From assembly GCF_058153355.1 (NCBI RefSeq), contig NZ_CM177019.1: a DNA stretch of 64,000 nt, one strand, 5' to 3'. The notes under the pieces were generated by a model that ran no database searches, was not told the DNA's origin, and was given only the letters and a program-made list of their open reading frames with translations. Below are positions 24,116 through 50,864 of this stretch, one piece after another (positions within the stretch are counted from its first letter, which is position 1; every line of letters begins with the position of its first letter). Position numbers and translations under genes: made by a program.

Positions 24116-24159
24116 TGCACTCTCCTCCGTTAACCTGGAGGAGAGTATGCGCGTCAGAG

Positions 24160-24176: not shown

Positions 24177-24226
24177 AGTTCAATTGGCCTAATAAGACAG
24201 CGTCACATCAGGCCATCCGTTTCAGC

Positions 24227-25729: not shown

Positions 25730-25992
25730 AGCTTTCCTCGCAGAGTTGGCCCATTTCCGCAAACGCCAGAAAAATCAGCGCGACGGCCGCAAAAGGGGAG
25801 CGGGAATTGCAGGATGCAATCTCTGTAACAAGCGTAGCGGGTTTGCTTACACCCTCCGGTTAAGGAATGTACAATCAAACCAGTTGACGCCTGAATTGGG
25901 CAGTTAATGAGCTTTTTACCCTACCAGTGTTTAAATTTGTGATCAACTTCACACATGATTTTCGTTTAGGAGTCATTGATGTAACTGATTAT

Positions 25993-26871: not shown

Positions 26872-29096
26872 TATCGTTCTGCCGTGAAAAGTGTTTGAAT
26901 ATCATCGCGTAACAGCTGAGCGTCGATGTAAATCCAGCCATGAGTCATCACAGTCTGCTGCAATTGCTGCTGCATCAGCCTGACCACCGATTCATTTTGT
27001 TGACGCAGAGCCAGACTTTCGCGTAAACGCGTCTGTAATTCCGTCAAACATGAAGCGAACTCAGCGAAAAAAGTATTCATGCCTGCCGTAACAGATTCAT
27101 CGACCTGCTCTGCCAGAACTTTAGCCATTTGTTGGCAATAAAGATCGACTTCTGCGCTTAATGCTCGTTGCAACGCACTGTAATCAACCGTCTCTATCGG
27201 GGATTTCTCATTTCCCCGTCCCCAGTCGGGCTGATTCAACCAGCGCGAAAAAGTCTCACGCACAACGCCTAAACGCGTGCTCTGCTCGTCCATTGCGTCC
27301 TGGCGCGAAATGACTTCACTGAACAGCTGGCGAGTGTTGAAGTGGGGAACTGCGCCGTGAAAAACAGGAAAATGAAACCCAGGACGAAACCCTGACTCGC
27401 TCAATTCCATTTTGACTTGTTGCTCAATGGGCCGAATAACATCGGTTAACACCCGGCAAAGAGTGGATTCAAGCTCGGCAAAACGCAGCGTAAAGTCGCG
27501 ACTGATGGTGTTCTGCGCCGTCTGTAACAGTGTCTCACAGCAGGTACGAATCTCGCTTAATGACCCCGAATCATCCTGAAACAACGCGGCTAACTGGGCA
27601 TTCACCGCATCTTGCTGTTGACGCAGAAAGAGGTTGGCGGAGGTCAGGGCCAGCTCGATTTCATGTTTAATCTCGCCGCTCACCTGAGCCTGATTGAGTT
27701 GAAATAGCTGCAAACTTTCTTCGATCTGGTGGATATTTTGCCGCAATTGTTCACAAGCGACGTTTAACCCGTGCGCACGAAAATCCAGGTATTCCCGCGC
27801 CTGCTGCGCGTAATTCAACAGTTTATGCGCGGCAGATCGCAGAGCATACAACGAGGCGTTAGCGTAAGCGGCATGAAGCAACGCCTGAATTGGCTGGGCG
27901 AACAGCGAATCTTCCCACAACTGATCGGCAGCATGACGAATATGTTCGAGGTCCGCCAGGTCGGCATGACGCCAGCGCCTGCCGAGCGCGGCATGGGCAA
28001 AATCCTCCACCCAGCGTTGTTGCTCTGGCGCGGGTAACTTACCGTTGTTGGCTAACTCATTACGCGCCCGATTCGCCAGGTAGCCCCACATCGACGACAC
28101 TGGAAATATCTGCTGTGGCGTAATACAGCCTTTCATCAGCGTCCCGGAAATCAGTGCCCGCACCTGGTCGGCGTCGTCACTGTTACGATCCTGTTGATCG
28201 AACTTATTGACCAGCACATACAGCGGCACCGATTGCCCCACCGCCAAAATCGCCTCACGGACCTCTTCATCGGAGATCGATTTCAGTTGCGTATAATCCA
28301 GCACCGCCAGTACCGCCGAGGCGCGAGCCAGCTGCTGGTTAAGCATTTTTTGCAGATGCGGTTGCCCGGCTTCATTTGGCCCAGGGGTATCCAGTAACGT
28401 CAACTGACCGGGATAACTCTCCAGCCCCGCCAGATGGACAAACTCCACTTCAATCACGGGAATATGCTCAATGGCGGCGTAAGCAGAAAAAGGAAAATCG
28501 ACGTCCAGCGCCTTCGCCAGTCGCACCAAATCATTCAAACTTTTCAGACAATGAAAAATAGGCTGGGCACCCAGATAATATTTTTCGAAAGCGACGCCAT
28601 TTTCGATCCGCAGCATAAGCGCACGCATATCTTTATCTATTTCCAGCACATCGGTCAGATGCTTAATATCGCAGTCACGCAGGCGCTGTTGTAATTGTTG
28701 AATTAAACAGTCGATTGGCGCGACATGTGAAAAATGCAGTACCGGTTCTTTTTGCCCGGGCGTATGGCGAATAAGCGTCGGCAGCGCAGTCATTGGGCGA
28801 TTGCGATTAGGCAGAACCTCCGTACCAACAATGGCATTAATGGTGGTTGATTTCCCTGCTTTCATAGTACCGACAATCGCCAGCACCATTTCCAGTCGGG
28901 AAATTTTACGCAACTCATTATTCAGCATCGCGTGACGTTCGGCGATATTAGGCTGACTCCAGGGTAAAGCCAGTTGTGGCGCATCGTCTCCGGGTACAGA
29001 GAGAGGCATTTTTTCCAGTAACTGCAACTGTTGGCGAGAAAGCTGTAACAGGCGTTCAGCCTCCTGACTTAACTCATACAGGGTCTGTGTGTACAT
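26868..29096 (-). CDS. crfC: Dynamin-like GTPase CrfC (YjdA), 742 aa
   Basis: N-terminal P-loop GTPase motif (GTMKAGKST), long coiled-coil C-terminal region; recognised sequence. Confidence 0.9.
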   Translation of the reverse strand: MYTQTLYELSQEAERLLQLSRQQLQLLEKMPLSVPGDDAPQLALPWSQPNIAERHAMLNNELRKISRLEMVLAIVGTMKAGKSTTINAIVGTEVLPNRNRPMTALPTLIRHTPGQKEPVLHFSHVAPIDCLIQQLQQRLRDCDIKHLTDVLEIDKDMRALMLRIENGVAFEKYYLGAQPIFHCLKSLNDLVRLAKALDVDFPFSAYAAIEHIPVIEVEFVHLAGLESYPGQLTLLDTPGPNEAGQPHLQKMLNQQLARASAVLAVLDYTQLKSISDEEVREAILAVGQSVPLYVLVNKFDQQDRNSDDADQVRALISGTLMKGCITPQQIFPVSSMWGYLANRARNELANNGKLPAPEQQRWVEDFAHAALGRRWRHADLADLEHIRHAADQLWEDSLFAQPIQALLHAAYANASLYALRSAAHKLLNYAQQAREYLDFRAHGLNVACEQLRQNIHQIEESLQLFQLNQAQVSGEIKHEIELALTSANLFLRQQQDAVNAQLAALFQDDSGSLSEIRTCCETLLQTAQNTISRDFTLRFAELESTLCRVLTDVIRPIEQQVKMELSESGFRPGFHFPVFHGAVPHFNTRQLFSEVISRQDAMDEQSTRLGVVRETFSRWLNQPDWGRGNEKSPIETVDYSALQRALSAEVDLYCQQMAKVLAEQVDESVTAGMNTFFAEFASCLTELQTRLRESLALRQQNESVVRLMQQQLQQTVMTHGWIYIDAQLLRDDIQTLFTAERY

Positions 29097-29497
29097 AGAA
29101 AATTTTTCCTTAAAGCAAATTTTATTACTTTTATTTAGCCAGATTGTTTTTGAGTTCTGTTTTCGGCTTTTATAATTACTGCAAGAAATAATTTTATATT
29201 TAGAGTGTTGTTTTTTATTAGAATAAATAACGTCTTCCGATACGTTTAAAATGTCAGAAAGATAAAAATATCATTTGAATTAAAAAAAGAACAAGTAGAG
29301 CATTAACCTTATCTTAAATAATAAATGGAGGCAAAAAGATTATTTTCTTTTTGCGTTTCCTTTCAAATGAAAACGATCGTCGTCTAAAATCAGCAGTACC
29401 CCCGACAAACTCAGGGATTTTGTGTATAATTGCGGCCTTTTTCGGCAATCTGCCGTTTTTTGGCGCTTTTGCCCTGCTGACTTTTGAGGAAATCCAC

Positions 29498-29833
29498 ATG
29501 TCATTACCACACTGCCCAAAATGCAACTCCGAATACACCTACGAAGATAACGGCATGTACATCTGCCCGGAATGTGCCTACGAATGGAACGACGCAGAAC
29601 CTGCACAGGAAAGCGATGAACTGATCGTTAAAGATGCAAACGGCAATCTTCTGGCTGATGGCGACAGCGTTACCATCATTAAAGATCTGAAGGTGAAAGG
29701 TAGCTCTTCGATGCTGAAGATCGGTACCAAAGTGAAAAACATTCGCCTGGTTGAAGGCGACCACAACATCGATTGCAAAATCGACGGTTTTGGTCCGATG
29801 AAACTGAAATCTGAGTTTGTGAAAAAGAACTGA
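29498..29833 (+). CDS. yjdM: Zn-ribbon protein YjdM (PhnA), 111 aa
   Basis: Translation [30 protein letters not shown]...; CxxC...CxxC motifs. Confidence 0.9.
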
Positions 29834-29867: not shown

Positions 29868-31170
<1,303 letters not shown>

Positions 31171-31200
31171 CATGCCTGCAATCTGGGAAACCGGGGTAGA

Positions 31201-31289
<89 letters not shown>

Positions 31290-31352
31290 CCCGCTCATCT
31301 GTATAATTTTCGAACTACACTTAACTGGCTTCTCTTAACTGAGGTCACCATC

Positions 31353-31796
31353 ATGCCGTTAAGTCCCTACCTCTCTTTTGCCGGTAACTGTTCCGACGCG
31401 ATTGCCTATTATCAACGTACGTTGGGCGCGGAACTGCTCTATAAAATCAGCTTCGGCGAAATGCCGAAATCAGCGCAGGACAGCGCCGAGAACTGCCCTT
31501 CCGGTATGCAATTTCCCGATACCGCTATCGCCCATGCTAACGTGCGTATTGCCGGAAGCGATATCATGATGAGCGATGCCATACCGTCAGGAAAAGCCAG
31601 CTACTCCGGTTTTACACTGGTACTCGATTCGCAACAGGTCGAAGAAGGAAAACGCTGGTTTGACAACCTTGCCGCTAACGGAAAAATCGAAATGGCCTGG
31701 CAGGAAACTTTCTGGGCGCATGGCTTCGGCAAAGTCACCGATAAATTTGGCGTACCGTGGATGATTAATGTCGTCAAACAACAACCAACGCACTAA
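31353..31796 (+). CDS. yjdN: PhnB-like/glyoxalase-fold protein YjdN (147 aa)
   Basis: Translation MPLSPYLSFAGNCSDAIAYYQRTLGAELL... Confidence 0.88.
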   Translation: MPLSPYLSFAGNCSDAIAYYQRTLGAELLYKISFGEMPKSAQDSAENCPSGMQFPDTAIAHANVRIAGSDIMMSDAIPSGKASYSGFTLVLDSQQVEEGKRWFDNLAANGKIEMAWQETFWAHGFGKVTDKFGVPWMINVVKQQPTH

Positions 31797-31928
31797 CCCG
31801 CCGGGAGGCCCGCCCTCCCGCACTGTCATCGAATTCCCGTTAACTCTTCATCTGTTAGTCACTTTTAGTTAACAAAATCGTCACGATAATCCGCCACGAT
31901 GGAGCCACTTTTTTAGGGAGGCTGCATC

Positions 31929-32717
31929 ATGCAAACGATTATCCGTGTCGAGAAGCTCGCCAAAACCTTCAATCAGCATCAGGCGCTGCACGCGGTTGAT
32001 TTGAACATTCATCACGGTGAAATGGTGGCTCTGCTTGGGCCGTCGGGTTCCGGCAAATCCACCCTTTTACGTCATTTAAGCGGTTTGATTACCGGCGATA
32101 AATCTGCCGGTAGCCATATCGAGCTGCTGGGCCGCACAGTCCAGCGCGAAGGCCGCCTGGCCCGCGATATCCGCAAAAGCCGCGCCAACACCGGCTACAT
32201 CTTCCAACAATTCAACCTGGTGAATCGCCTGAGCGTACTGGAGAACGTGCTGATTGGCGCGCTCGGCAGCACGCCATTCTGGCGCACCTGTTTTAGCTGG
32301 TTCACCCGCGAGCAGAAACAGCGCGCGTTACAGGCGCTGACCCGCGTTGGCATGGTGCACTTTGCCCATCAGCGCGTTTCCACCCTCTCCGGCGGGCAAC
32401 AGCAGCGTGTGGCGATTGCCCGCGCGCTGATGCAGCAGGCGAAGGTGATTCTGGCCGATGAACCCATCGCCTCGCTGGACCCGGAATCGGCGCGCATCGT
32501 GATGGACACCCTGCGCGACATTAACCAGAACGACGGCATTACCGTGGTCGTCACGCTGCATCAGGTGGATTACGCCCTGCGCTATTGCGAACGCATCGTC
32601 GCCCTGCGTCAGGGGCACGTCTTTTACGACGGCAGCAGCCAACAGTTTGATAACGAACGTTTTGACCATCTCTACCGCAGCATTAATCGCATCGAAGAGA
32701 ACGCGAAAGCTGCCTGA
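31929..32717 (+). CDS. phnC: Phosphonate ABC transporter ATP-binding protein PhnC
   Basis: Walker [13 protein letters not shown] signature LSGGQQQR; first gene of the phn operon. Confidence 0.93.
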
Positions 32718-32741
32718 CATCCCCATCATTGAGGAAAACGA

Positions 32742-33758
32742 ATGAACGCTAAGATAATTGCCTCGCTGGCCTTCACCAGCATGTTCAGCCTCAGCACCCT
32801 GTTAAGTCCGGCGCACGCCGAAGAGCAGGAAAAGGCGCTGAATTTCGGCATTATTTCAACGGAATCACAGCAAAACCTGAAACCGCAATGGACGCCGTTC
32901 TTACAGGATATGGAGAAGAAGCTGGGCGTAAAGGTCAACGCCTTCTTTGCCCCGGACTACGCGGGCATTATCCAGGGGATGCGCTTCAATAAAGTGGATA
33001 TCGCCTGGTACGGCAATCTATCGGCGATGGAAGCGGTGGATCGCGCCAACGGTCAGGTCTTCGCCCAGACGGTCGCGGCGGATGGATCGCCGGGTTACTG
33101 GAGCGTGTTGATCGTCAACAAAGACAGTCCGATCAACAACCTGAACGATCTGCTGGCGAAGCGTAAAGATCTCACCTTTGGCAATGGCGATCCTAACTCC
33201 ACCTCTGGCTTCCTCGTCCCCGGCTACTACGTCTTCGCCAAAAACAATATCTCCGCCAGCGACTTCAAGCGCACCGTCAACGCCGGGCATGAAACCAACG
33301 CGCTGGCCGTCGCCAACAAGCAGGTGGATGTGGCGACCAACAACACCGAGAACCTCGACAAGCTGAAAACCTCCGCACCGGAGAAGCTCAAAGAACTGAA
33401 GGTGATCTGGAAATCGCCGCTGATCCCAGGCGATCCGATCGTCTGGCGCAAAAATCTTTCCGAAACCACCAAAGACAAGATCTACGACTTCTTTATGAAC
33501 TACGGCAAAACGCCGGAAGAGAAAGCGGTGCTGGAGCGCCTGGGCTGGGCCCCGTTCCGCGCCTCCAGCGACCTGCAACTGGTGCCGATTCGCCAGCTCG
33601 CGCTGTTTAAAGAGATGCAGGGCGTGAAAGGCAATAAAGGGCTGAATGAGCAGGACAAGCTGGCAAAAACCAGCGCCATTCAGGCGCAACTGGATGACCT
33701 GGACCGCCTGAACAACGCGTTAAGCGCGATGAGTTCGGTGAGTAAAGCGGTGCAGTAA
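32742..33758 (+). CDS. phnD: Phosphonate ABC transporter periplasmic binding protein PhnD
   Basis: Signal peptide plus binding-protein fold; recognised sequence. Confidence 0.93.
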   Translation: MNAKIIASLAFTSMFSLSTLLSPAHAEEQEKALNFGIISTESQQNLKPQWTPFLQDMEKKLGVKVNAFFAPDYAGIIQGMRFNKVDIAWYGNLSAMEAVDRANGQVFAQTVAADGSPGYWSVLIVNKDSPINNLNDLLAKRKDLTFGNGDPNSTSGFLVPGYYVFAKNNISASDFKRTVNAGHETNALAVANKQVDVATNNTENLDKLKTSAPEKLKELKVIWKSPLIPGDPIVWRKNLSETTKDKIYDFFMNYGKTPEEKAVLERLGWAPFRASSDLQLVPIRQLALFKEMQGVKGNKGLNEQDKLAKTSAIQAQLDDLDRLNNALSAMSSVSKAVQ

Positions 33759-33772
33759 TGTGCTCGATCGGT

Positions 33773-33862
33773 CCCCTCTCCCTTGAGGGAGAGGGTTAGG
33801 GTGAGGGGGGAAATACGCACGCTGATGCCCTCACCCCGGCCCTCTCCCACAGGGAGAGGGAG
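33773..33862. repeat. GC-rich compound palindromic intergenic element between phnD and phnE
   Basis: Nested inverted repeats ccctctccc/gggagaggg (twice) flanking ttagggtgagggg...gccctcacccc. Confidence 0.7.
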
Positions 33863-33884
33863 AAAACATTAAACGGAGCCAAAC

Positions 33885-34664
33885 ATGCAAACCATCACCA
33901 TCGCCCCACCCAAGCGCAGCTGGTTCTCGCTTCTGAGCTGGGCCATTGTTCTCGCCGTGCTGGTCGTCTCGTGGCAGGGCGCGGAAATGGCCCCGCTCAC
34001 GCTGATTAAAGACGGCGGCAACATGGCGACGTTCGCCGCCGACTTCTTCCCGCCCGATTTCAGCCAGTGGCAGGATTACCTCACCGAAATGGCCGTCACG
34101 CTGCAAATCGCCGTCTGGGGCACCGCGCTGGCAGTCGTTCTCTCCATCCCCTTCGGCCTGATGAGCGCCGAAAACCTGGTGCCGTGGTGGGTGTACCAGC
34201 CCGTGCGCCGTCTGATGGACGCCTGCCGCGCCATTAACGAAATGGTCTTCGCCATGCTGTTCGTGGTCGCCGTCGGTCTCGGGCCGTTCGCTGGCGTGCT
34301 GGCGCTGTTTATTCACACCACCGGCGTGCTTTCCAAACTGCTTTCCGAAGCGGTGGAAGCGATTGAACCCGGCCCGGTGGAAGGTATTCGCGCCACTGGT
34401 GCCAACAAGCTCGAAGAGATCCTCTACGGCGTGCTGCCGCAGGTGATGCCGCTGCTGATCTCCTACTCCCTCTATCGCTTCGAATCCAACGTCCGTTCGG
34501 CCACCGTTGTTGGCATGGTCGGCGCTGGCGGGATCGGCGTCACGCTGTGGGAAGCGATTCGCGGTTTCCAGTTCCAGCAAACCTGCGCCCTGATGGTGCT
34601 GATTATCGTCACGGTCAGCCTGCTGGATTTCCTCTCTCAACGGTTGCGTAAGCACTTTATCTGA
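33885..34664 (+). CDS. phnE: Phosphonate ABC transporter permease PhnE, intact (259 aa)
   Basis: Single uninterrupted ORF with permease features. Confidence 0.9.
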
Positions 34665-34684
34665 TAAGCGAGGCATTGATATCT

Positions 34685-35410
34685 ATGCACTTGTCTACAC
34701 ATCCGACCAGCTACCCAACACGCTATCAGGAGATAGCCGCAAAACTTGAGCAGGAGCTTCGTCAACACTACCGCTGCGGCGACTATCTTCCCGCCGAGCA
34801 GCAACTGGCAGCGCGCTTTGAGGTGAATCGCCACACCCTGCGCCGTGCCATCGACCAACTGGTGGAAAAAGGCTGGGTACAGCGCCGTCAGGGCGTCGGC
34901 GTGCTGGTGCTGATGCGCCCGTTCGATTACCCGCTCAACGCTCAGGCGCGTTTTAGCCAGAACCTGCTGGATCAGGGTAGCCATCCCACCAGCGAAAAAC
35001 TGCTGTCCGTGCTGCGCCCGGCCTCCGGTCACGTCGCTGACGCGCTGGGGATAACCGAGGGCGAGAACGTTATCCACCTGCGCACCCTGCGCCGGGTCAA
35101 CGGCGTCGCGCTCTGTTTAATCGACCACTACTTTGCGGACCTCACCCTCTGGCCGACGCTGCAACGCTTCGACAGCGGCTCGCTGCACGATTTTCTGCGT
35201 GAGCAAACGGGGATTGCGCTGCGCCGCAGCCAGACGCGGATCAGCGCCCGCCGCGCCCAGGCCAAAGAGTGCCAGCGTCTTGAAATCCCGAATATGTCGC
35301 CGCTGCTGTGCGTGCGCACCCTTAACCACCGTGACGGTGAAAGCAGCCCGGCGGAGTACTCCGTCAGCCTGACGCGCGCCGACATGATTGAATTCACTAT
35401 GGAGCACTGA
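34685..35410 (+). CDS. phnF: GntR-family repressor PhnF (241 aa)
   Basis: N-terminal winged HTH, UTRA-like C-terminal domain; start at MHLSTHPTSYPTRYQEIAAKLE. Confidence 0.9.
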   Translation: MHLSTHPTSYPTRYQEIAAKLEQELRQHYRCGDYLPAEQQLAARFEVNRHTLRRAIDQLVEKGWVQRRQGVGVLVLMRPFDYPLNAQARFSQNLLDQGSHPTSEKLLSVLRPASGHVADALGITEGENVIHLRTLRRVNGVALCLIDHYFADLTLWPTLQRFDSGSLHDFLREQTGIALRRSQTRISARRAQAKECQRLEIPNMSPLLCVRTLNHRDGESSPAEYSVSLTRADMIEFTMEH

Positions 35411-35863
35411 ATGCACGCAGATACCGCGACCCGCCAGCACTGGATGTCCGTGCTGGCGCACAGCCAACCGGCTGAACTGGCTAACCGCCTTAAAGCGCTA
35501 AACATCACCGCCGACTATGACATTATCCGCGCCGCCGAAACCGGCCTGGTACAGATTCAGGCGCGGATGGGTGGCACCGGCGAACGCTTTTTTGCCGGCG
35601 ACGCCACGCTCACCCGCGCCGCCATACGCCTGACTGACGGCACGCTCGGCTACAGCTGGGTGCTGGGGCGCGACAAACAGCACGCCGAACGCTGCGCGCT
35701 GATTGACGCGCTGATGCAGCAATCTCGCCACTTTCAAAACTTATCAGAAACCCTTATTGCCCCGCTGGACGCTGACCGTATGGCACGCATTGCCGCACGC
35801 CAGGCCGAAGTGAACGCCAGTCGGGTCGACTTCTTTACGATGGTTCGCGGAGACAACGCATGA
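35411..35863 (+). CDS. phnG: C-P lyase core complex subunit PhnG
   Basis: Recognised sequence; operon position. Confidence 0.92.
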
Positions 35864-36444
35864 CCCTGGAAACCGCTTTTATGCTTCCCGTGCAGGATGC
35901 CCAGCACAGTTTTCGTCGCCTGTTAAAGGCCATGAGCGAGCCGGGCGTGATTGTCGCCCTACATCAACTCAAACGCGGCTGGCAGCCGCTGAATATTGCC
36001 TCTACCAGCGTATTGCTGACGCTGGCTGATAACGACACGCCGGTGTGGCTTTCCGCGCCATTAAGTAACGATATCGTCAGCCAGAGCCTGCGTTTTCATA
36101 CCAACGCCCCGCTGGTCAATCAGCCGGAACAGGCGACCTTCGCAGTGACGGATGAGGCGATTGCCAGCGAGCAGCTCAACGCCCTTTCCACCGGCACCGC
36201 CGTTGCGCCGGAAGCCGGTGCGACGTTGATTTTACAGGTCACCAGCCTGAGCGGCGGACGCATGCTGCGCCTCACCGGCGCGGGTATTGCCGAAGAACGG
36301 ATGATCGCCCCGCAACTGCCGGAGTGCATTCTGCACGAACTCACCGAGCGCCCGCACCCGTTCCCGCTCGGCATCGACCTGATCCTGACCTGCGGCGAGC
36401 GCCTGCTGGCTATTCCGCGAACCACTCATGTGGAGGTGTGCTGA
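35860..36444 (+). CDS. phnH: C-P lyase core complex subunit PhnH
   Basis: Recognised sequence; overlaps neighbours by 4/1 nt. Confidence 0.92.
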
Positions 36445-37508
36445 TGTACGTTGCCGTGAAAGGGGGCGAGAAGGCGATCGACGCCGCCCACGCCCTGCAA
36501 GAGAGCCGACGCCGGGGCGATACCGATTTGCCTGAACTGAGCGTCGCCCAGATTGAACAGCAGCTTAATCTCGCGGTGGATCGCGTGATGACCGAAGGCG
36601 GCATTGCCGACCGCGAACTGGCCGCACTGGCGCTGAAACAGGCCAGTGGCGATAACGTTGAAGCAATTTTCCTGCTGCGCGCCTACCGCACGACGCTGGC
36701 AAAACTGGCGGTAAGCGAGCCGCTCGACACCACCGGGATGCGTCTCGAACGCCGTATCTCCGCCGTTTATAAAGACATTCCTGGCGGCCAGCTGCTTGGC
36801 CCGACCTACGACTACACCCATCGCCTGCTGGATTTCACCCTGCTGGCGAATGGCGAAGCGCCGACGCTGACCACCGCCGACAGCGAGCAAGCCCCATCGC
36901 CGCACGTTTTCAGCCTGCTGGCGCGTCAGGGGCTGGCGAAGTTTGAAGAGGATAGCGGCGCACAGCCGGATGACATCACCCGTACACCGCCGGTTTACCC
37001 TTGCTCTCGCGCCTCCCGCCTGCAACAGCTCATGCGCGGCGACGAAGGCTACTTGCTGGCGCTGGCCTACTCCACCCAGCGCGGATATGGTCGCAATCAC
37101 CCCTTCGCAGGTGAAATCCGCAGCGGCTATATCGACGTGTCGATTGTGCCAGAAGAGCTGGGATTTTCAGTAAACGTCGGCGAACTGCTGATGACCGAGT
37201 GTGAAATGGTCAACGGTTTTATCGACCCGCCGGATGAGCCGCCGCACTTCACGCGCGGCTACGGGCTGGTGTTCGGCATGAGCGAGCGCAAAGCGATGGC
37301 AATGGCGCTGGTTGACCGTGCGTTGCAGGCTCCGGAGTACGGCGAGCACGCGACAGGCCCGGCGCAGGATGAAGAGTTCGTGCTGGCGCATGCCGACAAC
37401 GTCGAAGCCGCAGGCTTTGTCTCGCACCTCAAACTCCCGCACTACGTCGATTTCCAGGCCGAGCTGGAGCTACTCAAACGTCTGCAACAGGAGCAGAACC
37501 ATGGCTAA
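36444..37508 (+). CDS. phnI: C-P lyase subunit PhnI (354 aa)
   Basis: Start [19 protein letters not shown] chosen inside the longer ORF at the phnH stop overlap. Confidence 0.92.
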   Translation: MYVAVKGGEKAIDAAHALQESRRRGDTDLPELSVAQIEQQLNLAVDRVMTEGGIADRELAALALKQASGDNVEAIFLLRAYRTTLAKLAVSEPLDTTGMRLERRISAVYKDIPGGQLLGPTYDYTHRLLDFTLLANGEAPTLTTADSEQAPSPHVFSLLARQGLAKFEEDSGAQPDDITRTPPVYPCSRASRLQQLMRGDEGYLLALAYSTQRGYGRNHPFAGEIRSGYIDVSIVPEELGFSVNVGELLMTECEMVNGFIDPPDEPPHFTRGYGLVFGMSERKAMAMALVDRALQAPEYGEHATGPAQDEEFVLAHADNVEAAGFVSHLKLPHYVDFQAELELLKRLQQEQNHG

Positions 37509-38346
37509 TCTGAGCGGCTACAACTTTGCCTACCTCGACGAGCAGACCAAACGCATGATCCGCCGCGCCATCTTAAAAGCGGTGGCGATCCCCGGCTATC
37601 AGGTGCCGTTTGGCGGGCGCGAGATGCCGATGCCATACGGCTGGGGAACCGGCGGCATACAGCTTACCGCCAGCGTGATTGGCGAAAGCGACGTGTTGAA
37701 GGTGATTGACCAGGGCGCGGATGACACCACCAACGCCGTATCAATTCGCAACTTTTTCAAGCGCGTGACCGGGGTAAACACCACTGAACGTACGGATGAT
37801 GCGACGCTTATCCAGACGCGCCACCGCATCCCCGAAACGCCGCTGACCGAAGATCAGATCATTATTTTCCAGGTGCCCATCCCCGAACCGCTGCGCTTTA
37901 TCGAGCCGCGCGAAACGGAGACCCGCACTATGCACGCGCTGGAGGAGTACGGCGTGATGCAGGTGAAACTGTATGAAGATATCGCCCGCTTCGGTCATAT
38001 CGCCACCACCTACGCCTATCCGGTGAAGGTGAACGGACGCTACGTAATGGACCCATCGCCGATCCCGAAATTTGATAACCCGAAAATGGACATGATGCCC
38101 GCCCTGCAACTGTTCGGCGCGGGGCGCGAAAAGCGTATTTATGCGGTGCCGCCGTTTACCCGCGTGGAAAGCCTCGATTTCGACGATCATCCGTTCACCG
38201 TTCAGCAGTGGGATGAACCCTGCGCGATTTGCGGATCAACCCACAGCTATCTTGATGAAGTGGTGCTGGATGACGCCGGAAACCGCATGTTTGTCTGCTC
38301 CGATACCGATTATTGCCGCCAACAGAGCGAGGCGAAAAGCCAATGA
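37501..38346 (+). CDS. phnJ: C-P lyase catalytic subunit PhnJ (281 aa)
   Basis: Start MANLSGYNFAYLDEQTKRMIRRAILKAV; four-Cys motif near the C-terminus (CAICGS...CSDTDYC). Confidence 0.92.
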   Translation: MANLSGYNFAYLDEQTKRMIRRAILKAVAIPGYQVPFGGREMPMPYGWGTGGIQLTASVIGESDVLKVIDQGADDTTNAVSIRNFFKRVTGVNTTERTDDATLIQTRHRIPETPLTEDQIIIFQVPIPEPLRFIEPRETETRTMHALEEYGVMQVKLYEDIARFGHIATTYAYPVKVNGRYVMDPSPIPKFDNPKMDMMPALQLFGAGREKRIYAVPPFTRVESLDFDDHPFTVQQWDEPCAICGSTHSYLDEVVLDDAGNRMFVCSDTDYCRQQSEAKSQ

Positions 38347-39101
38347 ATCAACCGTTACTTTCGGTCAATAACCTGACCCACCTCTACGCGCCGGGCAAAG
38401 GCTTTAGCGATGTCTCTTTTGATTTATGGCCGGGGGAAGTGCTGGGCATCGTCGGGGAATCCGGCTCCGGGAAGACCACGCTGCTGAAATCAATCTCCGC
38501 GCGCCTGACGCCGCAGCAGGGGGAGATTCGCTATGAAAACCGCTCCCTCTATGGCATGAGCGAAGCCGACCGCCGCCGTTTGCTGCGCACCGAATGGGGC
38601 GTGGTGCATCAGCATCCGCTCGACGGCCTGCGCCGTCAGGTGTCAGCAGGCGGCAATATCGGCGAACGGCTGATGGCGACCGGGGCGCGTCATTACGGCG
38701 ACATTCGCGCCACCGCGCAGAAGTGGCTGGAAGAGGTGGAGATTCCCGCCAACCGTATCGACGATCTGCCGACCACTTTTTCCGGCGGCATGCAGCAGCG
38801 TTTGCAGATTGCCCGCAACCTGGTGACGCATCCGAAGCTGGTGTTTATGGACGAGCCAACCGGCGGGCTGGATGTGTCAGTGCAGGCACGCCTGCTCGAC
38901 CTGCTGCGCGGTCTGGTGGTGGAGCTGAACCTGGCAGTGGTGATTGTCACCCATGATCTGGGTGTCGCACGCCTGTTGGCAGACCGTTTGCTGGTGATGA
39001 AACAGGGGCAAGTGGTGGAGAGTGGCTTAACCGACCGCGTGCTCGACGACCCGCATCACCCGTATACCCAGTTGCTGGTGTCATCGGTTTTGCAGAATTG
39101 A
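38343..39101 (+). CDS. phnK: C-P lyase-associated ABC ATPase PhnK (252 aa)
   Basis: Walker A GESGSGKTT; start MNQPLLSVNNLTHLY. Confidence 0.92.
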   Translation: MNQPLLSVNNLTHLYAPGKGFSDVSFDLWPGEVLGIVGESGSGKTTLLKSISARLTPQQGEIRYENRSLYGMSEADRRRLLRTEWGVVHQHPLDGLRRQVSAGGNIGERLMATGARHYGDIRATAQKWLEEVEIPANRIDDLPTTFSGGMQQRLQIARNLVTHPKLVFMDEPTGGLDVSVQARLLDLLRGLVVELNLAVVIVTHDLGVARLLADRLLVMKQGQVVESGLTDRVLDDPHHPYTQLLVSSVLQN

Positions 39102-39104
39102 GCC

Positions 39105-39252
39105 GGTGCCGGATGCGGCGTAAACGCCTTATCCGGCTTTTCAGGCCGCAACGCCTGATGGCGCTTCGCTTATCAGGCCTACAAAACCATCGTAATACGT
39201 TGATATTGATTCATTTGTAGGCCGGATAAGGCGCAGCCGCCATCCGGCAAAA
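39105..39252. repeat. REP/BIME cluster between phnK and phnL
   Basis: Several REP units (gccggatgcggcgtaaacgccttatccggc; gcctgatggcgcttcgcttatcaggcctac; tgtaggccggataaggcgcagccgccatccggca); contains an ATCAGGCCTAC 11-mer at about 39172-39182. Confidence 0.85.
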
Positions 39253-39268
39253 ACACGAAGAGGCCAAA

Positions 39269-39949
39269 ATGATCCGCGTCGAAAACGTCAGTAAAACCTT
39301 CATCCTGCACCAGCAAAACGGCGTGCGCCTGCCCGTCTTACAACGCGCCTCGCTCACCGTCAACGCGGGCGAATGCGTGGTGCTCCACGGTCACTCCGGC
39401 AGCGGCAAATCAACTCTGCTACGCTCGCTGTACGCCAACTATCTGCCCGACGAAGGGCAAATTCAGATCAAACATGGTGACGAGTGGGTAGACCTGGTCA
39501 CCGCGCCAGCGCGCAAAGTGGTGGAAATCCGCAAAACCACCGTCGGCTGGGTGAGCCAGTTTCTGCGGGTCATCCCGCGTATTTCAGCGCTGGAAGTGGT
39601 AATGCAGCCGCTGCTCGATACCGGCGTTTCGCGTGATGCCTGCGCCGCTAAAGCCGCGCGTCTGCTCACCCGCCTGAACGTGCCGGAACGTCTGTGGCAC
39701 CTGGCGCCATCGACCTTCTCCGGCGGCGAACAGCAGCGCGTCAACATCGCGCGCGGCTTTATCGTCGATTACCCCATTCTGCTGCTCGACGAACCTACTG
39801 CCTCGCTGGACGCCAAAAACAGCGCCGCGGTGGTGGAACTGATCCGCGAAGCTAAAACCCGCGGCGCAGCCATCGTCGGCATCTTCCACGACGAAGCCGT
39901 ACGCAATGACGTCGCCGACCGCCTCCACCCAATGGGAGCCTCTGCATGA
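39269..39949 (+). CDS. phnL: C-P lyase-associated ABC ATPase PhnL
   Basis: Walker [10 protein letters not shown]; operon position. Confidence 0.92.
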
Positions 39950-41082
39950 TTATCAATAACGTCAAACTGGTGCTGGAAAACGAAGTGGTACACGGTTCGC
40001 TGGAGGTGCAGGACGGCGAAATTCGCGCCTTTGCCGAAAGCCAGAGCCGCCTGCCAGAGGCGATGGACGGCGAAGGCGGCTGGCTGCTGCCGGGGCTGAT
40101 TGAGCTGCATACCGACAACCTCGATAAATTCTTCACTCCGCGCCCAAAAGTGGACTGGCCTGCCCACTCGGCGATGAGCAGCCACGATGCGCTGATGGTG
40201 GCGAGCGGCATCACCACCGTGCTGGACGCCGTGGCGATTGGCGACGTGCGCGACGGCGGCGATCGGCTGGAGAATCTGGAAAAGATGATCAACGCCATCG
40301 AAGAGACGCAGAAACGCGGCGTCAACCGCGCCGAGCACCGCCTGCACCTGCGCTGCGAACTGCCGCATCACACTACGCTGCCGCTGTTTGAAAAACTGGT
40401 GCAGCGCGAGCCGGTCACGCTGGTGTCGCTAATGGACCACTCACCGGGCCAGCGCCAGTTCGCCAATCGCGAGAAATATCGCGAATATTATCAGGGCAAA
40501 TACTCGCTCACCGATGCGCAGATGCAGCAGTATGAAGGGGAACAACTGGCGCTTGCCGCACGCTGGTCGCAGCCGAATCGCGAAACCATCGCCGCAATGT
40601 GCCGCGCGCGACAAATTGCCCTCGCCAGCCACGATGACGCCACGCACGCGCACGTTGCCGAATCCCACCAGCTTGGCAGCGTAATCGCCGAATTTCCCAC
40701 CACGTTCGAAGCGGCGGAAGCTTCGCGCAAGCATGGCATGAATGTATTGATGGGCGCGCCGAATATTGTGCGCGGCGGTTCGCACTCCGGCAACGTGGCG
40801 GCCAGTGAACTGGCACAGCTTGGTCTGCTGGATATCCTCTCTTCCGACTACTACCCCGCCAGCCTGCTCGATGCGGCATTTCGCGTCGCCGATGACGAGA
40901 GCAACCGCTTTACGCTGCCGCAGGCGGTGAAGCTGGTGACTAAAAATCCGGCCCAGGCGCTTAATCTTCAGGATCGCGGGGTGATTGGCGAGGGCAAACG
41001 CGCCGACCTGGTGCTGGCGCATCGCAAGGGCAACCACATTCATATCGATCACGTCTGGCGTCAGGGTAAAAGGGTGTTCTGA
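39946..41082 (+). CDS. phnM: Ribose-triphosphate diphosphohydrolase PhnM (amidohydrolase fold)
   Basis: Recognised sequence; metal-dependent hydrolase motifs. Confidence 0.92.
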
Positions 41083-41639
41083 TGACGGGAAAACTGATTT
41101 GGTTAATGGGGGCCTCTGGCTCCGGAAAAGACAGTCTGTTGACGGAACTCCGCCAGCGGGAACAAACTCAGCTACTGGTAGCGCATCGCTACATCACGCG
41201 CGCCGCCAGCGCCGGAAGTGAAAACCATATCGCCCTGAGCGAGCAGGAGTTTTTTACCCGCGCGGGGCAGAACCTTCTGGCCTTAAGCTGGCACGCCAAC
41301 GGCCTGTATTATGGCATCGGCGTCGAGATTGACCTCTGGCTGCACGCTGGATTTGACGTGGTGGTCAACGGCTCACGCGCCCATCTACCGCAGGCGCGGG
41401 CGCGCTATCAATCGGCGCTGCTGCCCATCTGTTTACAGGTTTCGCCAGAGATCCTGCGCCAGCGCCTGGAAAACCGTGGCCGTGAAAACGCCAGTGAAAT
41501 TAACGCCCGCCTGGCGCGCGCCGCCCGCTATACTCCTCAGGATTGTCTTACGCTCAATAATGACGGCAGCCTGCGCCAGTCGGTCGACAAGCTGCTGACG
41601 CTGATTCATCAGAAGGAGAAACACCATGCCTGCTTGTGA
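41082..41639 (+). CDS. phnN: Ribose 1,5-bisphosphate phosphokinase PhnN
   Basis: P-loop GASGSGKDS; operon position. Confidence 0.92.
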
Positions 41640-42060
41640 GCTTCGCCCGGCCACGCAGTACGACACCGACGCAGTTTACGCGCTGATTTGTGAGCTAAAA
41701 CAGGCGGAGTTTGACCACCACGCGTTTCGCGTGGGGTTTAACGCCAATCTGCGCGACCCGAACATGCGCTACCATCTGGCGCTGCTGGATGGCGAAGTTG
41801 TCGGCATGATCGGCCTGCATTTGCAGTTTCATCTGCATCATGTCAACTGGATCGGCGAAATTCAGGAACTGGTGGTGATGCCGCAGGCGCGCGGTCTGAA
41901 CGTCGGCAGTAAATTACTGGCATGGGCCGAAGAAGAAGCCCGCCAGGCCGGGGCCGAAATGACCGAGCTTTCCACCAACGTCAAGCGCCACGACGCGCAC
42001 CGTTTCTATCTGCGCGAAGGCTACGAGCAGAGCCACTTCCGCTTCACCAAGGCGCTGTAA
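41626..42060 (+). CDS. phnO: Aminoalkylphosphonate N-acetyltransferase PhnO (GNAT)
   Basis: GNAT fold; operon position. Confidence 0.92.
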
Positions 42061-42061
42061 C

Positions 42062-42820
42062 ATGAGCCTGACCCTCACACTTACTGGCACTGGCGGCGCA
42101 CAGGGCGTTCCCGCATGGGGCTGTGAGTGTGCGGCCTGCGCCAGAGCGCAGCGCTCACCGCAGTATCGCCGCCAGCCATGCAGCGGCGTCGTGAAGTTTA
42201 ACGAGGCGATCACCCTGATCGACGCCGGGCTGCACGATCTCGCCGATCGCTGGTCGCCCGGATCGTTCCAGCAGTTTTTGCTGACGCACTACCATATGGA
42301 TCACGTGCAGGGGCTGTTTCCGCTGCGCTGGGGCGTGGGCGATTCTATCCCGGTCTACGGCCCGCCGGATGAACAGGGCTGCGACGATCTGTTTAGACAT
42401 CCGGGCCTGCTTGATTTCAGCCACACGGTGGAGCCATTTGTGATGTTTGATTTGCAGGGATTACAGGTCACGCCGCTGCCGCTCAACCATTCGAAACTCA
42501 CTTTCGGCTATCTACTGGAAACGGCACATAGCCGGGTGGCGTGGCTGTCTGACACCGCAGGCCTGCCGGAAAAAACGGTGAAATTTTTACGCAATAATCA
42601 GCCGCAGGTGATGGTGATTGATTGCAGCCACCCACCGCGCGCGAATTCGCCACGCAATCACTGTGATTTAAACACCGTGCTGGCGCTGAATGAAGTTATC
42701 CGCTCGCCGCGCGTGGTTCTGACACATATCAGCCATCAGCTTGATGTGTGGCTGATGGAGAACGTACTGCCGTCAGGGTTTGAGGCGGGGTTTGATGGGA
42801 TGGAGATTGGGGTGGAGTAA
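42062..42820 (+). CDS. phnP: Phosphoribosyl cyclic phosphodiesterase PhnP (metallo-beta-lactamase fold)
   Basis: HYHMDH motif; last gene of the phn operon. Confidence 0.92.
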
Positions 42821-42854
42821 TGGGTGAGGGGCGATGCCTGCTCTAAACTCAACA

Positions 42855-43184
42855 TCACCGCCCATACTCATCTTCCATTCTCCGCTCTTCATCTTCTAGC
42901 TGCCGACGCTCCTGATCCAGCTGGCGCTGGCGATCGTCCAGCTGCCTGCGGCGATCTTCAAACTGGCGGCGGCGATCGTCATATTGTCTGCGCCGATCGT
43001 CGTTCACTTCACGCTGCCAGCCGTCGTCGCGCGAATCTTCATAGTCTCGCCCACGGTCAGGGTTATAAGCATCGTTAATCGCCTGCTGAATATTGCCAAT
43101 GGTGTCGTCGATAATATCGGCCTGGGCCGGAACGGTGGACAGCGTGAGCAGGGTGAATAAAAGAAATAGCGGAAAACGTTTCAT
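42855..43184 (-). CDS. yjdP: Secreted Arg/Asp/Glu-rich repeat protein YjdP (109 aa)
   Basis: Signal peptide followed by low-complexity DDRRRQ.. repeats. Confidence 0.85.
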   Translation of the reverse strand: MKRFPLFLLFTLLTLSTVPAQADIIDDTIGNIQQAINDAYNPDRGRDYEDSRDDGWQREVNDDRRRQYDDRRRQFEDRRRQLDDRQRQLDQERRQLEDEERRMEDEYGR

Positions 43185-43252
43185 TAGCCAACCTCAAAAA
43201 GAAACTCTATCCACATTAGTCATTACTCATCCATGCAAGTAGTGGATGAATC

Positions 43253-43570
43253 TCAATTTTTCCGCTGCTCTATTGCCGTAATCGCCTCCACGCGTTGTTG
43301 ATGACGACCGCCTTCGTACTGCGCGCCCAGCCACGCATCCACAATCATTTTTGCCAGTTCGAGGCCAACCACTCGTGAACCAAAAGCCAGTGCAACTTCA
43401 CTGGCGTAATGCGGATAATCAGTGCGCTCTGACGACCTGGTTTCTTTATCAATCCCCTCACTCATTGACCATGAATAAAAGGCTGGCACAGCAACGCAGA
43501 ATCCTGCGGTGCCAGCGACATGACCGCCCATTGCTCCGGTACGTTTTTTAATAAGAAATACCGGTTGCAT
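43253..43570 (-). pseudogene. rpiB: rpiB-derived remnant: C-terminal region of ribose-5-phosphate isomerase B retained, internal segment missing, N-terminal part unrecognisable
   Basis: ORF contains ...SSERTDYPHYAS.VALA then FGSRVVGLELAKMIVDAWLGAQYEGGRHQQRVEAITAIEQR.N, which matches RpiB as I recall it, but about 50 central residues including the catalytic Cys region are absent. Confidence 0.55.
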
Positions 43571-43822
43571 TGATTAATTGTGCTCAGTATTTGCCGAAGT
43601 ACAATATATATAATAAATATATAAAACACCTCATATTATTTACAGAGATAATAAATTCGCGTACTTTTCCCTCTTCAGCACAAATGCCTAATAAAATGGC
43701 TCGTTCCGCTCACACTTCCACTTATTAAAATCGCAATTTCCCAATTATGATAACGCCAGCTTTAAATGACGTATTTTGCATGGATTACATATTTACGACA
43801 CAAATGATAAATGGAGATTTAT

Positions 43823-45808
43823 ATGAATAACTCTCGGTTATTCCGTTTGAGCAGGATTGTTATTGCGTTAACTGCCGCCAGCGGCATGATGGTAAATACC
43901 GCTCACGCAACAGATGAAGCGAAAGCCGCCACTCAATATACCCAACAGGTTAATCAGAATTACGCCAAATCATTACCGTTTAGCGATCGTCAGGATTTTG
44001 ACGATGCCCAGCGTGGATTTATCGCTCCGCTGCTGGATGAAGGTATTCTGCGTGATGCGAATGGCAAAATTTACTACCGCGCGGATGATTACAAATTTGA
44101 TATTAATGCCGCTGCGCCGGAAACCGTAAACCCCAGCCTGTGGCGTCAGTCGCAGATCAACGGCATTTCTGGCCTGTTCAAAGTCACCGATAAAATGTAT
44201 CAGGTGCGCGGCCAGGATATCTCTAACATTACATTCGTTGAGGGCGAGAAAGGCATTATTGTTATCGACCCACTGGTGACGCCGCCTGCCGCAAAAGCCG
44301 CACTTGACCTTTACTTCCAGCATCGTCCGCAAAAACCGATTGTTGCTGTTATTTACACCCACAGCCACGCCGACCATTATGGCGGTGTGAAAGGCATTAT
44401 CTCTGAAGCGGATGTTAAATCTGGCAAAGTGCAGGTGATCGCTCCGGCAGGCTTTATGGACGAAGCCATCAGCGAAAACGTGCTGGCGGGTAACATCATG
44501 AGCCGCCGTGCACTTTACTCTTACGGCCTGTTACTGCCGCACAACGCGCAAGGTAACGTGGGCAATGGGCTTGGCGTGACGCTGGCAACGGGCGACCCGA
44601 GCATTATTGCGCCAACCAAAACGATTGTCAGAACTGGCGAGAAGATGGTCATCGACGGTCTGGAGTTTGACTTTCTGATGACTCCGGGTAGCGAAGCTCC
44701 AGCCGAAATGCACTTCTATATTCCGGCCCTGAAAGCCCTGTGTACCGCCGAAAACGCCACGCATACCTTGCACAACTTCTACACCCTGCGCGGCGCGAAA
44801 ACCCGCGACACCAGCAAGTGGACAGAGTATCTGAACGAAACGCTGGATATGTGGGGTAACGACGCGGAAGTACTGTTTATGCCGCACACCTGGCCGGTCT
44901 GGGGCAATAAGCATATCAATGATTATATTGGTAAATATCGCGATACTATCAAATACATTCACGACCAGACCCTGCACCTGGCGAACCAGGGTTACACCAT
45001 GAATGAAATCGGCGACATGATTAAGCTGCCACCTGCGCTTGCCAATAACTGGGCCAGCCGCGGCTATTACGGTTCTGTTAGCCACAACGCCCGTGCAGTG
45101 TATAACTTCTATCTCGGCTATTATGACGGCAATCCAGCTAACCTACATCCGTACGGTCAGGTGGAGATGGGCAAACGTTACGTGAAAGCGCTGGGCGGTT
45201 CCGCCCGTGTCATCAACCTGGCGCAAGAAGCGAACAAGCAAGGGGATTACCGCTGGTCAGCAGAGTTGCTGAAACAGGTGATTGCTGCCAATCCGGGTGA
45301 CCAGGTGGCGAAGAATCTGCAAGCGAATAACTTTGAGCAGTTGGGTTATCAGGCCGAGTCCGCCACCTGGCGCGGTTTCTACCTGACCGGCGCAAAAGAG
45401 CTGCGCGAAGGGGTGCATAAGTTCAGCCACGGCACCACCGGTTCTCCGGACACCCTTCGCGGGATGTCGGTCGAAATGCTGTTCGACTTTATGGCCGTTC
45501 GCCTCGATAGCGCGAAAGCCGCAGGTAAGAATATCAGCCTGAACTTCAATATGAGCAACGGCGATAACCTCAACCTGACGCTGAACGATAGCGTGCTTAA
45601 CTACCGTAAAACGCTGCAACCTGAAGCCAACGCCTCTTTCTACATCAGCCGTGAAGATCTGCACGCCGTGCTGACCGGACAAGCCAAAATGGCCGATCTG
45701 GTGAAAACGAAGAAAGCCAAAATTATTGGCAATGGCGCGAAACTGGAAGAAATTATTGCCTGTCTGGATAATTTTGATTTGTGGGTGAATATCGTAACCC
45801 CAAATTAA
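43823..45808 (+). CDS. yjcS: Alkyl/aryl-sulfatase YjcS (661 aa; metallo-beta-lactamase plus SCP2-like domains)
   Basis: Signal peptide [29 protein letters not shown]; HSHADH motif. Confidence 0.9.
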
Positions 45809-45818
45809 TGCCACTCAC

Positions 45819-45855
45819 TTTTGGGGGCGCTTAAGCCCCCAAAAGCATTTATTTT
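45819..45855 (+). terminator. Rho-independent terminator after yjcS (ttttgggggc-gcttaa-gcccccaaaa then T-rich tail)
   Basis: 10-bp perfect stem with T-rich tail seen in sequence. Confidence 0.7.
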
Positions 45856-46016
45856 AAAAATACATACAACAAATTAATACATAAAATATATAAGTTATGA
45901 ATGCGGTGGCTGAATATAGCTATTTTTATTCATCGAGAAAATAGCCATACTGACGCCTTCAATGGATATTGATATTCACTACAGATATTGTTCGCAGCAG
46001 ACAGGATGTATTTAAT

Positions 46017-46292
46017 ATGCCAACAGTTCTCTCTCGCATGGCGATGCAACTAAAAAAAACAGCCTGGATAATTCCCGTCTTCATGGTTTCGGGATGCTCA
46101 TTATCTCCGGCAATCCCGGTGATCGGCGCTTATTATCCCTGCTGGTTTTTCTGCGCCATTGCCAGCCTTATTTTGACGCTCATCACGAGGCGAATTATTC
46201 AGCGGGCAAATATCAATCTGGCATTTGTCGGAATTATTTATACCGCCCTTTTTGCTCTCTACGCCATGCTGTTCTGGCTGGCATTTTTCTAA
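46017..46292 (+). CDS. ytcA: Small lipoprotein YtcA (91 aa)
   Basis: Lipobox ...MVSGC; start MPTVLSRMAMQLKK chosen inside the longer ORF; directly upstream of mdtN. Confidence 0.8.
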   Translation: MPTVLSRMAMQLKKTAWIIPVFMVSGCSLSPAIPVIGAYYPCWFFCAIASLILTLITRRIIQRANINLAFVGIIYTALFALYAMLFWLAFF

Positions 46293-46310
46293 TCTATTTG
46301 AGACGCGCTC

Positions 46311-50856: not shown

Positions 50857-50864
50857 AATGTCAG

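Follow-up and report, generated by a model that had tools for sequence, protein, structure and literature searches.

The standard phnCDEFGHIJKLMNOP operon of Escherichia coli, very probably in its functional form, with an in-frame phnE

Introduction

In E. coli K-12, phnE is cryptic and carries an 8-bp insertion, as recounted in PMC6469041 with reference to Makino 1991 and Iqbal 2004. The K-12 PhnCDE transporter becomes active once the 8 bp are removed, it also imports phosphate, and phnE has already been stated to be functional in most E. coli (PMC6469041). Upstream of phnC, K-12 has an 18-nt PhoB site, ATTAACCAAATCGTCACA, that was mapped by ChIP-seq, and deletion of phoB causes phnC RNA to fall from 32,470 to 13 (PMC10294691, Table 1).

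Here we describe the phn genes in a stretch of 64,000 nucleotides of contig NZ_CM177019.1 (assembly GCF_058153355.1), referred to as the window. An earlier note on this DNA, whose account of the K-12 allele agrees with that above, had described a complete phn operon with an uninterrupted phnE. Our analysis indicates that this is very probably a functional version of the standard E. coli phnCDEFGHIJKLMNOP operon, from which we infer expression and growth on phosphonates.

Results

The ORF analysis of the window revealed phnCDEFGHIJKLMNOP as 14 uninterrupted + strand reading frames in canonical order (Table 1), exactly where the earlier note had placed a complete operon (31929-42820). All 14 begin with ATG, have no internal stops and are equal in length to the MG1655 genes. 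Longer versions of phnI, phnJ, phnK and phnF with upstream GTG or TTG starts were dropped, as the ATG starts of K-12 and PGAP were preferred. Of the 14 proteins, 12 scored above the curated NCBIfam thresholds of their respective Phn families (for PhnL to PhnP, with TIGR02324, NF011981, NF007485, NF007530 and TIGR03307), and PhnI and PhnJ were matched via Pfam. Residue checks showed that PhnJ keeps G32, C241, C244, C266 and C272, residues with described roles in this protein, among them the 4Fe-4S cysteines C241, C244 and C266. PhnP has H76, H78, D80, H81, H143, D164, H200, H222 and C21/C23/C26 at the positions of its metal ligands and catalytic residues.

Table 1. Features of the phn region, in window coordinates.
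Feature	Position	Strand	Size	Product or description
IS621	29949-31226		~1.28 kb	bounds from empty site in Z0117EC0005, 2-nt overlap
PhoB binding site (Pho box), phnC promoter	31868-31885	+	18 nt	predicted; GTTAACAAAATCGTCACG; homologous to K-12 ChIP-seq site ATTAACCAAATCGTCACA
phnC	31929-32717	+	262 aa	ATP-binding subunit, phosphonate ABC transporter; NF007438 608 bits (cut-off 365); 98.5% aa identity with K-12
phnD	32742-33758	+	338 aa	periplasmic phosphonate-binding protein; TIGR03431 376 bits (cut-off 261); 99.1% aa identity with K-12
phnD-phnE spacer	33759-33884	+	126 nt	GC-rich palindromic dispersed repeat; RNA fold -70.2 kcal/mol, z -6.2
phnE	33885-34664	+	259 aa	membrane permease subunit, intact; TIGR01097 311 bits (cut-off 217), profile positions 8-251 of 252
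GCTGGCGT repeat tract	34290-34304	+	15 nt	GCTGGCGTGCTGGCG, in frame; location of K-12 +8 frameshift
phnF	34685-35410	+	241 aa	GntR-family regulator; NF007486 518 bits (cut-off 363); 100% aa identity with K-12
phnG	35411-35863	+	150 aa	C-P lyase core complex; TIGR03293/TIGR03292 matches cover phnG/phnH
phnH	35860-36444	+	194 aa	C-P lyase core complex; TIGR03293/TIGR03292 matches cover phnG/phnH
phnI	36444-37508	+	354 aa	C-P lyase core complex; PF05861 512 bits, end to end
phnJ	37501-38346	+	281 aa	C-P lyase core complex; PF06007 502 bits, end to end
phnK	38343-39101	+	252 aa	ATP-binding protein, C-P lyase system; TIGR02323 410 bits (cut-off 303)
phnK-phnL spacer	39102-39268	+	167 nt	REP elements; K-12 spacer 57 nt shorter
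phnL	39269-39949	+	226 aa	accessory ATPase
phnM	39946-41082	+	378 aa	RPnTP diphosphatase
phnN	41082-41639	+	185 aa	ribose 1,5-bisphosphokinase
phnO	41626-42060	+	144 aa	aminoalkylphosphonate N-acetyltransferase
phnP	42062-42820	+	252 aa	cyclic phosphodiesterase

Of the 13 junctions, seven have overlapping stop and start codons (-1 to -14 nt), and at two others the genes are separated by 0 or 1 nt. The description of the genes as contiguous with extensive overlaps holds for the overlaps, and contiguity has to be qualified by the two repeat-filled spacers, phnD-phnE (126 nt) and phnK-phnL (167 nt). The repeat in the former occurs at a median of five places per E. coli genome.

phnE is a single reading frame of 259 codons, as had been claimed, and its frame allows no longer ORF. 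Alignment revealed a sole indel relative to MG1655, one missing GCTGGCGT unit, and no other frameshift. As the tract is 23 nt long in MG1655 and 15 nt in the window, the window lacks the 8-bp insertion that shifts the frame in K-12. The in-frame tract is that of a functional-type phnE encoding the full-length permease, and the product is identical to K-12 PhnE at 258 of 259 positions after the extra 8-bp unit is taken out. A tract of 31 nt is found in YZ22PE244, and one of 15 nt in CP032679, a revertant MG1655 record.

Across 5,392 complete E. coli genomes, an in-frame tract like that of the window occurs in ~81% and the +8 allele in ~19%. Intact phnE is thus the majority state in E. coli, which makes the K-12 allele, rather than that of the window, the unusual one. 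Wild isolates of human, poultry and dog origin also carry the 23-nt allele. Proteins identical to PhnE, PhnC and PhnK of the window are each encoded by 1,000 or more public contigs, and the exact PhnP variant, with 16 differences from K-12, by only two. Codon comparison of the operon with K-12 gave 387 synonymous and 68 non-synonymous changes, which indicates purifying selection.

The 132-nt spacer between yjdN and phnC differs from that of MG1655 at only three bases (A/C/A in K-12, G/A/G in the window), all of them inside the 18-nt PhoB site. The TGTCA-type half-sites (TTAAC and GTCAC) are unchanged. The classical 18-nt Pho-box consensus CTGTCATAWAWCTGTCAY had no match within the window at up to three mismatches. 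The phnC site departs too far from that consensus, and a matrix built from 59 ChIP-seq sites was used instead. With this matrix the site scored 13.7 bits, compared to 12.7 in K-12, and weaker in-phase matches were observed at 31857 and 31846. Loss of Pho-box elements upstream of phnC, which the earlier note had named as evidence that would speak against its prediction, was not seen; the site is kept, with a score no lower than that of K-12. A sigma-70 promoter scan found none at phnC, as expected for a PhoB-dependent promoter without a -35 element. The exact 79-nt promoter variant is present in 20 of 5,384 records, and nearly all other listed E. coli keep the K-12 version over this length. To polarise the substitutions across Escherichia species, contigs were scanned for the PhoB site with its three variable positions set to N; there were no matches, and as even E. 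coli was missed, this outcome carries no information.

Two further observations concern the structure of the region. The alleles of the operon form a fine-scale mosaic. Sliding-window identity of the phnK 3' region drops to ~0.90 against four references, and its best identity to a complete genome is at most 95.7% over 588 nt; a strongly divergent, possibly imported phnK 3' half was therefore considered. When the coding part was aligned directly, only synonymous SNPs in scattered positions were seen, and mean column identity was 97%. The variable REP spacer accounts for most of the dip; the idea of import was given up and only the general remark on mosaic structure is kept. Upstream of yjdN, a complete IS621 (IS110 family) is inserted in a REP element. 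It encodes a 326-aa IS110-type recombinase (NF033542, 253 bits), has the CT core on both sides and is adjoined by a match to REP-derived naRNA4; the element is annotated as IS621-family in N96.

Discussion

Upon phosphate starvation, phosphorylated PhoB would bind the predicted site (31868-31885) and recruit RNA polymerase, and the resulting single transcript would encode four groups of products. PhnCDE would form an ABC importer and PhnF a repressor. The PhnGHIJKL proteins would act as the C-P lyase machinery, in which the phosphonate is joined to ribose triphosphate and the C-P bond is then cleaved by the radical SAM step of PhnJ, and the accessory enzymes PhnM, PhnN, PhnO and PhnP would bring the phosphorus back to metabolism as PRPP. 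As the phnE tract has 15 nt instead of 23, the full permease should be made and uptake, unlike that of K-12, should be independent of slippage reversion. It is therefore reasonable to predict from the sequence that phosphonates can be used with no prior reversion. Growth would need phoBR, which like pst lies outside the window, and we assume that the 68 amino acid differences from K-12 are all harmless.

A different reading of phnE is that it represents the "on" state of a contingency (phase-variable) locus, with the perfect GCTGGCGTGCTGGCG tract switching by slippage, rather than a fixed functional gene. Complete genomes hold tracts of 15, 23 and 31 nt, the 23-nt allele extends to wild isolates, and one MG1655 record is back at 15 nt. 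Slippage reversion is documented as well (PMC6469041, with reference to Iqbal 2004), and the window keeps a perfect repeat where its nearest relatives have the interrupted tract GCTGGCGTACTGGCG. However, slippage is far rarer with two copies than with three, and the 994 identical 23-nt alleles may be largely one clonal lineage (K-12-like phylogroup A) and not the product of repeated switching. We consider a switching locus somewhat unlikely, and it would add to the reading of phnE as functional rather than contradict it; slippage of a perfect 15-nt tract into the off state can still occur.

The promoter raises the question of whether this lineage could have a structurally intact operon that is silent or only weakly induced, as the PhoB-site substitutions would weaken activation of what is already the weakest tested Pho promoter. 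Among five promoters tested, that of phnC had the fastest PhoB~P off-rate and was the last to come on (PMC4447250), and both the confinement of the spacer differences to the PhoB site and the rarity of the three-substitution version are in line with this idea. Yet both half-site cores are intact, the C -> A change in the spacer of the site brings it closer to the A/T-rich consensus, and the score rises in the position weight matrix by which the effect of the substitutions was judged. In addition, EC42405, Z0117EC0005 and N96 have the identical variant ahead of intact operons, and strong purifying selection on the downstream genes is unexpected for a silent operon. We consider a silent or weakly induced operon very improbable. 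Both peculiarities could also be combined, with the lineage-specific triple substitution, in an otherwise nearly invariant phnC promoter, as an adaptive retuning of the onset of phosphonate use (e.g., earlier induction via higher PhoB affinity) and the slippage-prone tract keeping the importer phase-variable. We regard this combination as very doubtful; if true, the regulation of phosphonate uptake would be evolving locally in wild E. coli.

Overall, our data favor a standard operon with a functional phnE. Like most E. coli, the strain is best annotated as competent for phosphonate utilisation (Phn+), and the finding has little significance beyond correct annotation. An operon with intact phnE is already known, and the earlier note overrated its significance. 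Of wider relevance is that phnE is frameshifted in about one fifth of complete genomes, beyond laboratory strains, and that K-12 is the exception. PhnCDE is reportedly linked to the fosfomycin response (title of PMC7566553), and together with its import of phosphate this makes the on/off state of phnE worth recording in comparisons of strain phenotypes.

Among described systems, the operon is alike in its 14 genes, their order, lengths and overlaps to that of E. coli B and the phnE+ K-12 revertant (Stasi et al. 2019, PMC6469041, with reference to Makino et al. 1991 and Iqbal et al. 2004), and the revertant record CP032679 has the same tract length. With the cryptic operon of K-12 MG1655 (phnE pseudogene b4583) it shares the layout of the promoter and 13 intact genes, equal in length. 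The K-12 phnE, in contrast, with its 23-nt tract, shifts frame after about codon 140 and meets early stops. Nucleotide identity to K-12 is 92-97% per gene, and the two differ in three PhoB-site bases and in the repeats of the phnD-phnE and phnK-phnL spacers, the former of which holds REP/BIME in K-12 in place of the GC-rich palindromic repeat. K-12 also has the als operon beside phnP, where the window has none. The RefSeq complete genomes EC42405, Z0117EC0005 and N96 likewise have no als operon, and they resemble the window in gene order, intact phnE, PhoB-site variant and spacer elements. Their tracts are interrupted whereas that of the window is perfect, and only N96 has the IS621 insertion. 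Their flanks are ~99.5% identical to those of the window, but the operon itself only 97.0-97.7%, with identity swinging from ~0.90 to 1.00 in 500-nt windows.

Gene Content and Reading Frames

An ORF list over window positions 30500-44500 and a gene-by-gene scripted comparison with MG1655 (NC_000913.3) revealed that all 14 genes of the C-P lyase operon, phnCDEFGHIJKLMNOP, start with ATG, have no internal stops and match their K-12 counterparts exactly in length. PhnC, D, E, F, G, H, K, L, M, N, O and P had NCBIfam equivalog matches, all far over the curated cut-offs, and PhnI and PhnJ had full-length matches to Pfam PF05861 and PF06007, respectively. Genes overlap by 1-14 nt at 7 of the 13 junctions and are separated by 0 and 1 nt at 2 others; the remaining gaps are 24 nt (phnC/D), 20 nt (phnE/F) and two long spacers of 126 nt (phnD/E) and 167 nt (phnK/L). 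With the 14 genes in place, and with these family matches and junction sizes, the earlier note's coordinates and its description of a complete operon are therefore correct.

Features of the phn operon and its surroundings
Feature	Position	Strand	Length	Remark
STnc630 sRNA	24019-24184	-		Rfam, 182 bits
naRNA4 match	29871-29947			REP-derived
IS621, complete	29949-31226	+		IS110 family; between yjdM and yjdN
IS621 recombinase ORF	30141-31121	+	326 aa	
PhoB site	31868-31885			GTTAACAAAATCGTCACG
phn operon	31929-42820	+		
phnC			262 aa	
phnD			338 aa	
phnD-phnE spacer	33759-33884			
phnE			259 aa	
phnE repeat tract	34290-34304			GCTGGCGTGCTGGCG
phnF			241 aa	
phnG			150 aa	
phnH			194 aa	
phnI			354 aa	
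phnJ			281 aa	
phnK			252 aa	
phnK-phnL spacer	39102-39268			
phnL			226 aa	
phnM			378 aa	
phnN			185 aa	
phnO			144 aa	
phnP			252 aa	
yjdP	42855-43184	-		downstream of phnP
rpiB remnant	43253-43570	-	105 aa	C-terminal 37 residues only match PF02502
yjcS	43811-45808			
SECIS element	51466-51520	+		Rfam, 87.9 bits; directly upstream of fdhF ORF start 51522

Changed codons relative to K-12 comprised 387 synonymous and 68 non-synonymous, which is how genes under purifying selection behave. The K-12 PhnF and PhnO proteins are identical to those of the window, and PhnP is the most divergent (93.7%). Retained residues included G32, C241, C244, C266 and C272 of PhnJ and C21, C23, C26, H76, H78, D80, H81, H143, D164, H200 and H222 of PhnP, whose roles are presumably those described for these two proteins in structural and mechanistic work.

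The phnE Repeat Tract

Alignment of window positions 33740-34700 with MG1655 and EC42405, the closest complete genome, bore out the claim that phnE is one uninterrupted 259-codon ORF without the extra 8-bp unit of K-12. The sole length difference within phnE was a single GCTGGCGT unit that MG1655 has and the window lacks; bounded by two fixed flanks, CCGTTC and CTGTTTAT, the tract is 15 nt in the window versus 23 nt in MG1655. Translated from the same ATG, MG1655 phnE loses its frame after about residue 140 and then encounters stops, and removal of one unit from it produces a protein matching window PhnE at 258 of 259 residues. The window ORF is the maximum length possible in its frame and spans positions 8-251 of the 252-position TIGR01097 PhnE model. 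The tract is a perfect repeat in the window, whereas in the closest relatives, the complete E. coli genomes EC42405, Z0117EC0005 and N96, it is interrupted (GCTGGCGTACTGGCG).

A query of 67 nt, with the tract at its centre, matched a span of identical length in ~4,380 of 5,392 complete E. coli genomes and one of 75 nt (+8) in ~1,000. The reciprocal MG1655 75-mer query returned 994 records at ≥99% identity, 27 slightly below, and 4,373 in the band corresponding to the 67-nt span. From these counts, phnE is in frame in ~81% of complete genomes and carries the +8 allele in ~19%; the in-frame tract is not unusual in E. coli. Tract lengths were 15, 23 or 31 nt, the last in one genome, YZ22PE244. 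The +8 allele also occurs outside laboratory K-12, with listed hosts including people, chickens, ducks and dogs; in strain 300709 (human stool, Mozambique), which carries it, phnE is annotated as frameshifted, as it is in YZ22PE244. NZ_CP032679.1, a Brazilian record of MG1655, combines a 15-nt tract with an intact phnE and is presumably the revertant of Stasi et al. (PMC6469041). For each of the window proteins PhnE, PhnC and PhnK, an exact match is encoded by 1,000 or more public contigs; for PhnP, 2 E. coli contigs encode one.

The phnC Promoter

Loss of the Pho box upstream of phnC, which the earlier note named as evidence against its reading, was looked for, and the site was present. Within the 132-nt yjdN-phnC spacer just 3 positions differ between the window and MG1655, all inside the 18-nt PhoB site, which in K-12 is ATTAACCAAATCGTCACA by ChIP-seq; in that strain, phnC RNA falls from 32,470 to 13 upon phoB deletion (PMC10294691, Table 1). 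These substitutions affect positions 1, 7 and 18 of the motif and leave both half-site cores unchanged. On a log-odds matrix derived from the 58 remaining ChIP-seq sites, the window site scored 13.7 bits versus 12.7 for K-12, an increase due to the C to A substitution within its A/T-rich spacer. Judged by its cores and score, the PhoB site is present and, to the extent that a matrix can show it, not weakened. Two weaker matches, 11 nt and 22 nt further upstream, are also retained.

This 79-nt promoter variant is rare, an identical copy being present in just 20 of 5,384 E. coli records, and EC42405, Z0117EC0005 and N96, all with intact operons, have the PhoB-site variant in common with the window. 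Ten full-length records sampled among the others, with Nissle 1917, O157:H7 and K-12 in their number, all had an equal number of mismatches to the window promoter; outside its 3 substitutions, the stretch was nearly invariant among them. The PhoB-site pattern, with N at the 3 variable bases, had no match, to E. coli or any other species, in a 100,044-species genome collection, which is unexpected if that collection has an E. coli representative. As the phnC promoter had the lowest affinity and latest induction among 5 Pho promoters tested (PMC4447250), we speculate that a small affinity change there could shift induction timing.

Spacers, Divergence, and Neighbourhood

The phnD-phnE spacer contains a GC-rich palindromic dispersed repeat of ~110 nt (CCCCTCTCCC...GGGAGAGGG...GGGTGAGGGG and its mirror), with a predicted fold of -70 kcal/mol (z -6.2); the median E. 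coli genome carries it at 5 places. At this spot, MG1655 instead has a REP/BIME element. Classically, unequal expression in ABC-transporter operons goes with a hairpin between the binding-protein and permease genes. The phnK-phnL spacer (110 nt in MG1655) consists of REP elements whose arrangement differs in every strain compared; a block at the end of phnK that had looked strongly divergent was rejected, as it was mostly this variable spacer.

The window is E. coli DNA, with flanks that share 99.5% (14000-29500) and 98.4-98.8% (44000-56000) identity with complete genomes, EC42405 and Z0117EC0005 among them, whereas the best identity for the operon among 5,426 genomes was only 97.0-97.7%, with 2,046 genomes in the 90-95% band. 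The operon is thus more divergent than its surroundings, and its differences are almost all synonymous. In a 500-nt sliding comparison with four references, the best match switched every few hundred bases, which points to a fine-scale mosaic, as would be expected from recombination among alleles.

IS621 is oriented like phnC and lies ~700 nt upstream of it. Z0117EC0005 has the empty site, and comparison with it placed a CT dinucleotide at both sides of the element; the target, ...TTATCAGGCCT/CTACAAATT, is within a REP element, and the right end is ACAGTAT-CT. Among 5,426 complete genomes, N96 (Tibetan pig) alone has an IS in precisely that position. We take the 192-nt non-coding left end (29949-30140) to be the expected place of the guide ("bridge") RNA; an Rfam search of it found no family at threshold. 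Rfam matched two further naRNA4/REP325 copies outside the operon, with 53989-54172 (-) among the listed match coordinates. A SECIS element is expected at fdhF, which has an in-frame UGA selenocysteine codon. Downstream of phnP, K-12 has the als (D-allose) operon, which is absent from the window, EC42405, Z0117EC0005 and N96.

Pathway and Prediction

In the established pathway, PhoB~P switches on one phn transcript, and phosphonate is imported by PhnCDE. PhnGHIL together with PhnI transfer phosphonate to the ribose of ATP. Removal of pyrophosphate is the task of PhnM and radical SAM cleavage of the C-P bond that of PhnJ, and PhnP and PhnN make PRPP from the cyclic ribose phosphate. PhnCDE imports phosphate too (PMC6469041), and PhnO acetylates aminoalkylphosphonates (PMC3463581).

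Overall, our data establish which genes this operon contains, their reading frames and families, the state of the repeat and the presence of the PhoB site. The observation of an intact operon is confirmed, and its interpretation is supported: we infer that the source strain would grow on phosphonates without a reversion step. An intact phn operon with in-frame phnE is an already known and common state in E. coli.
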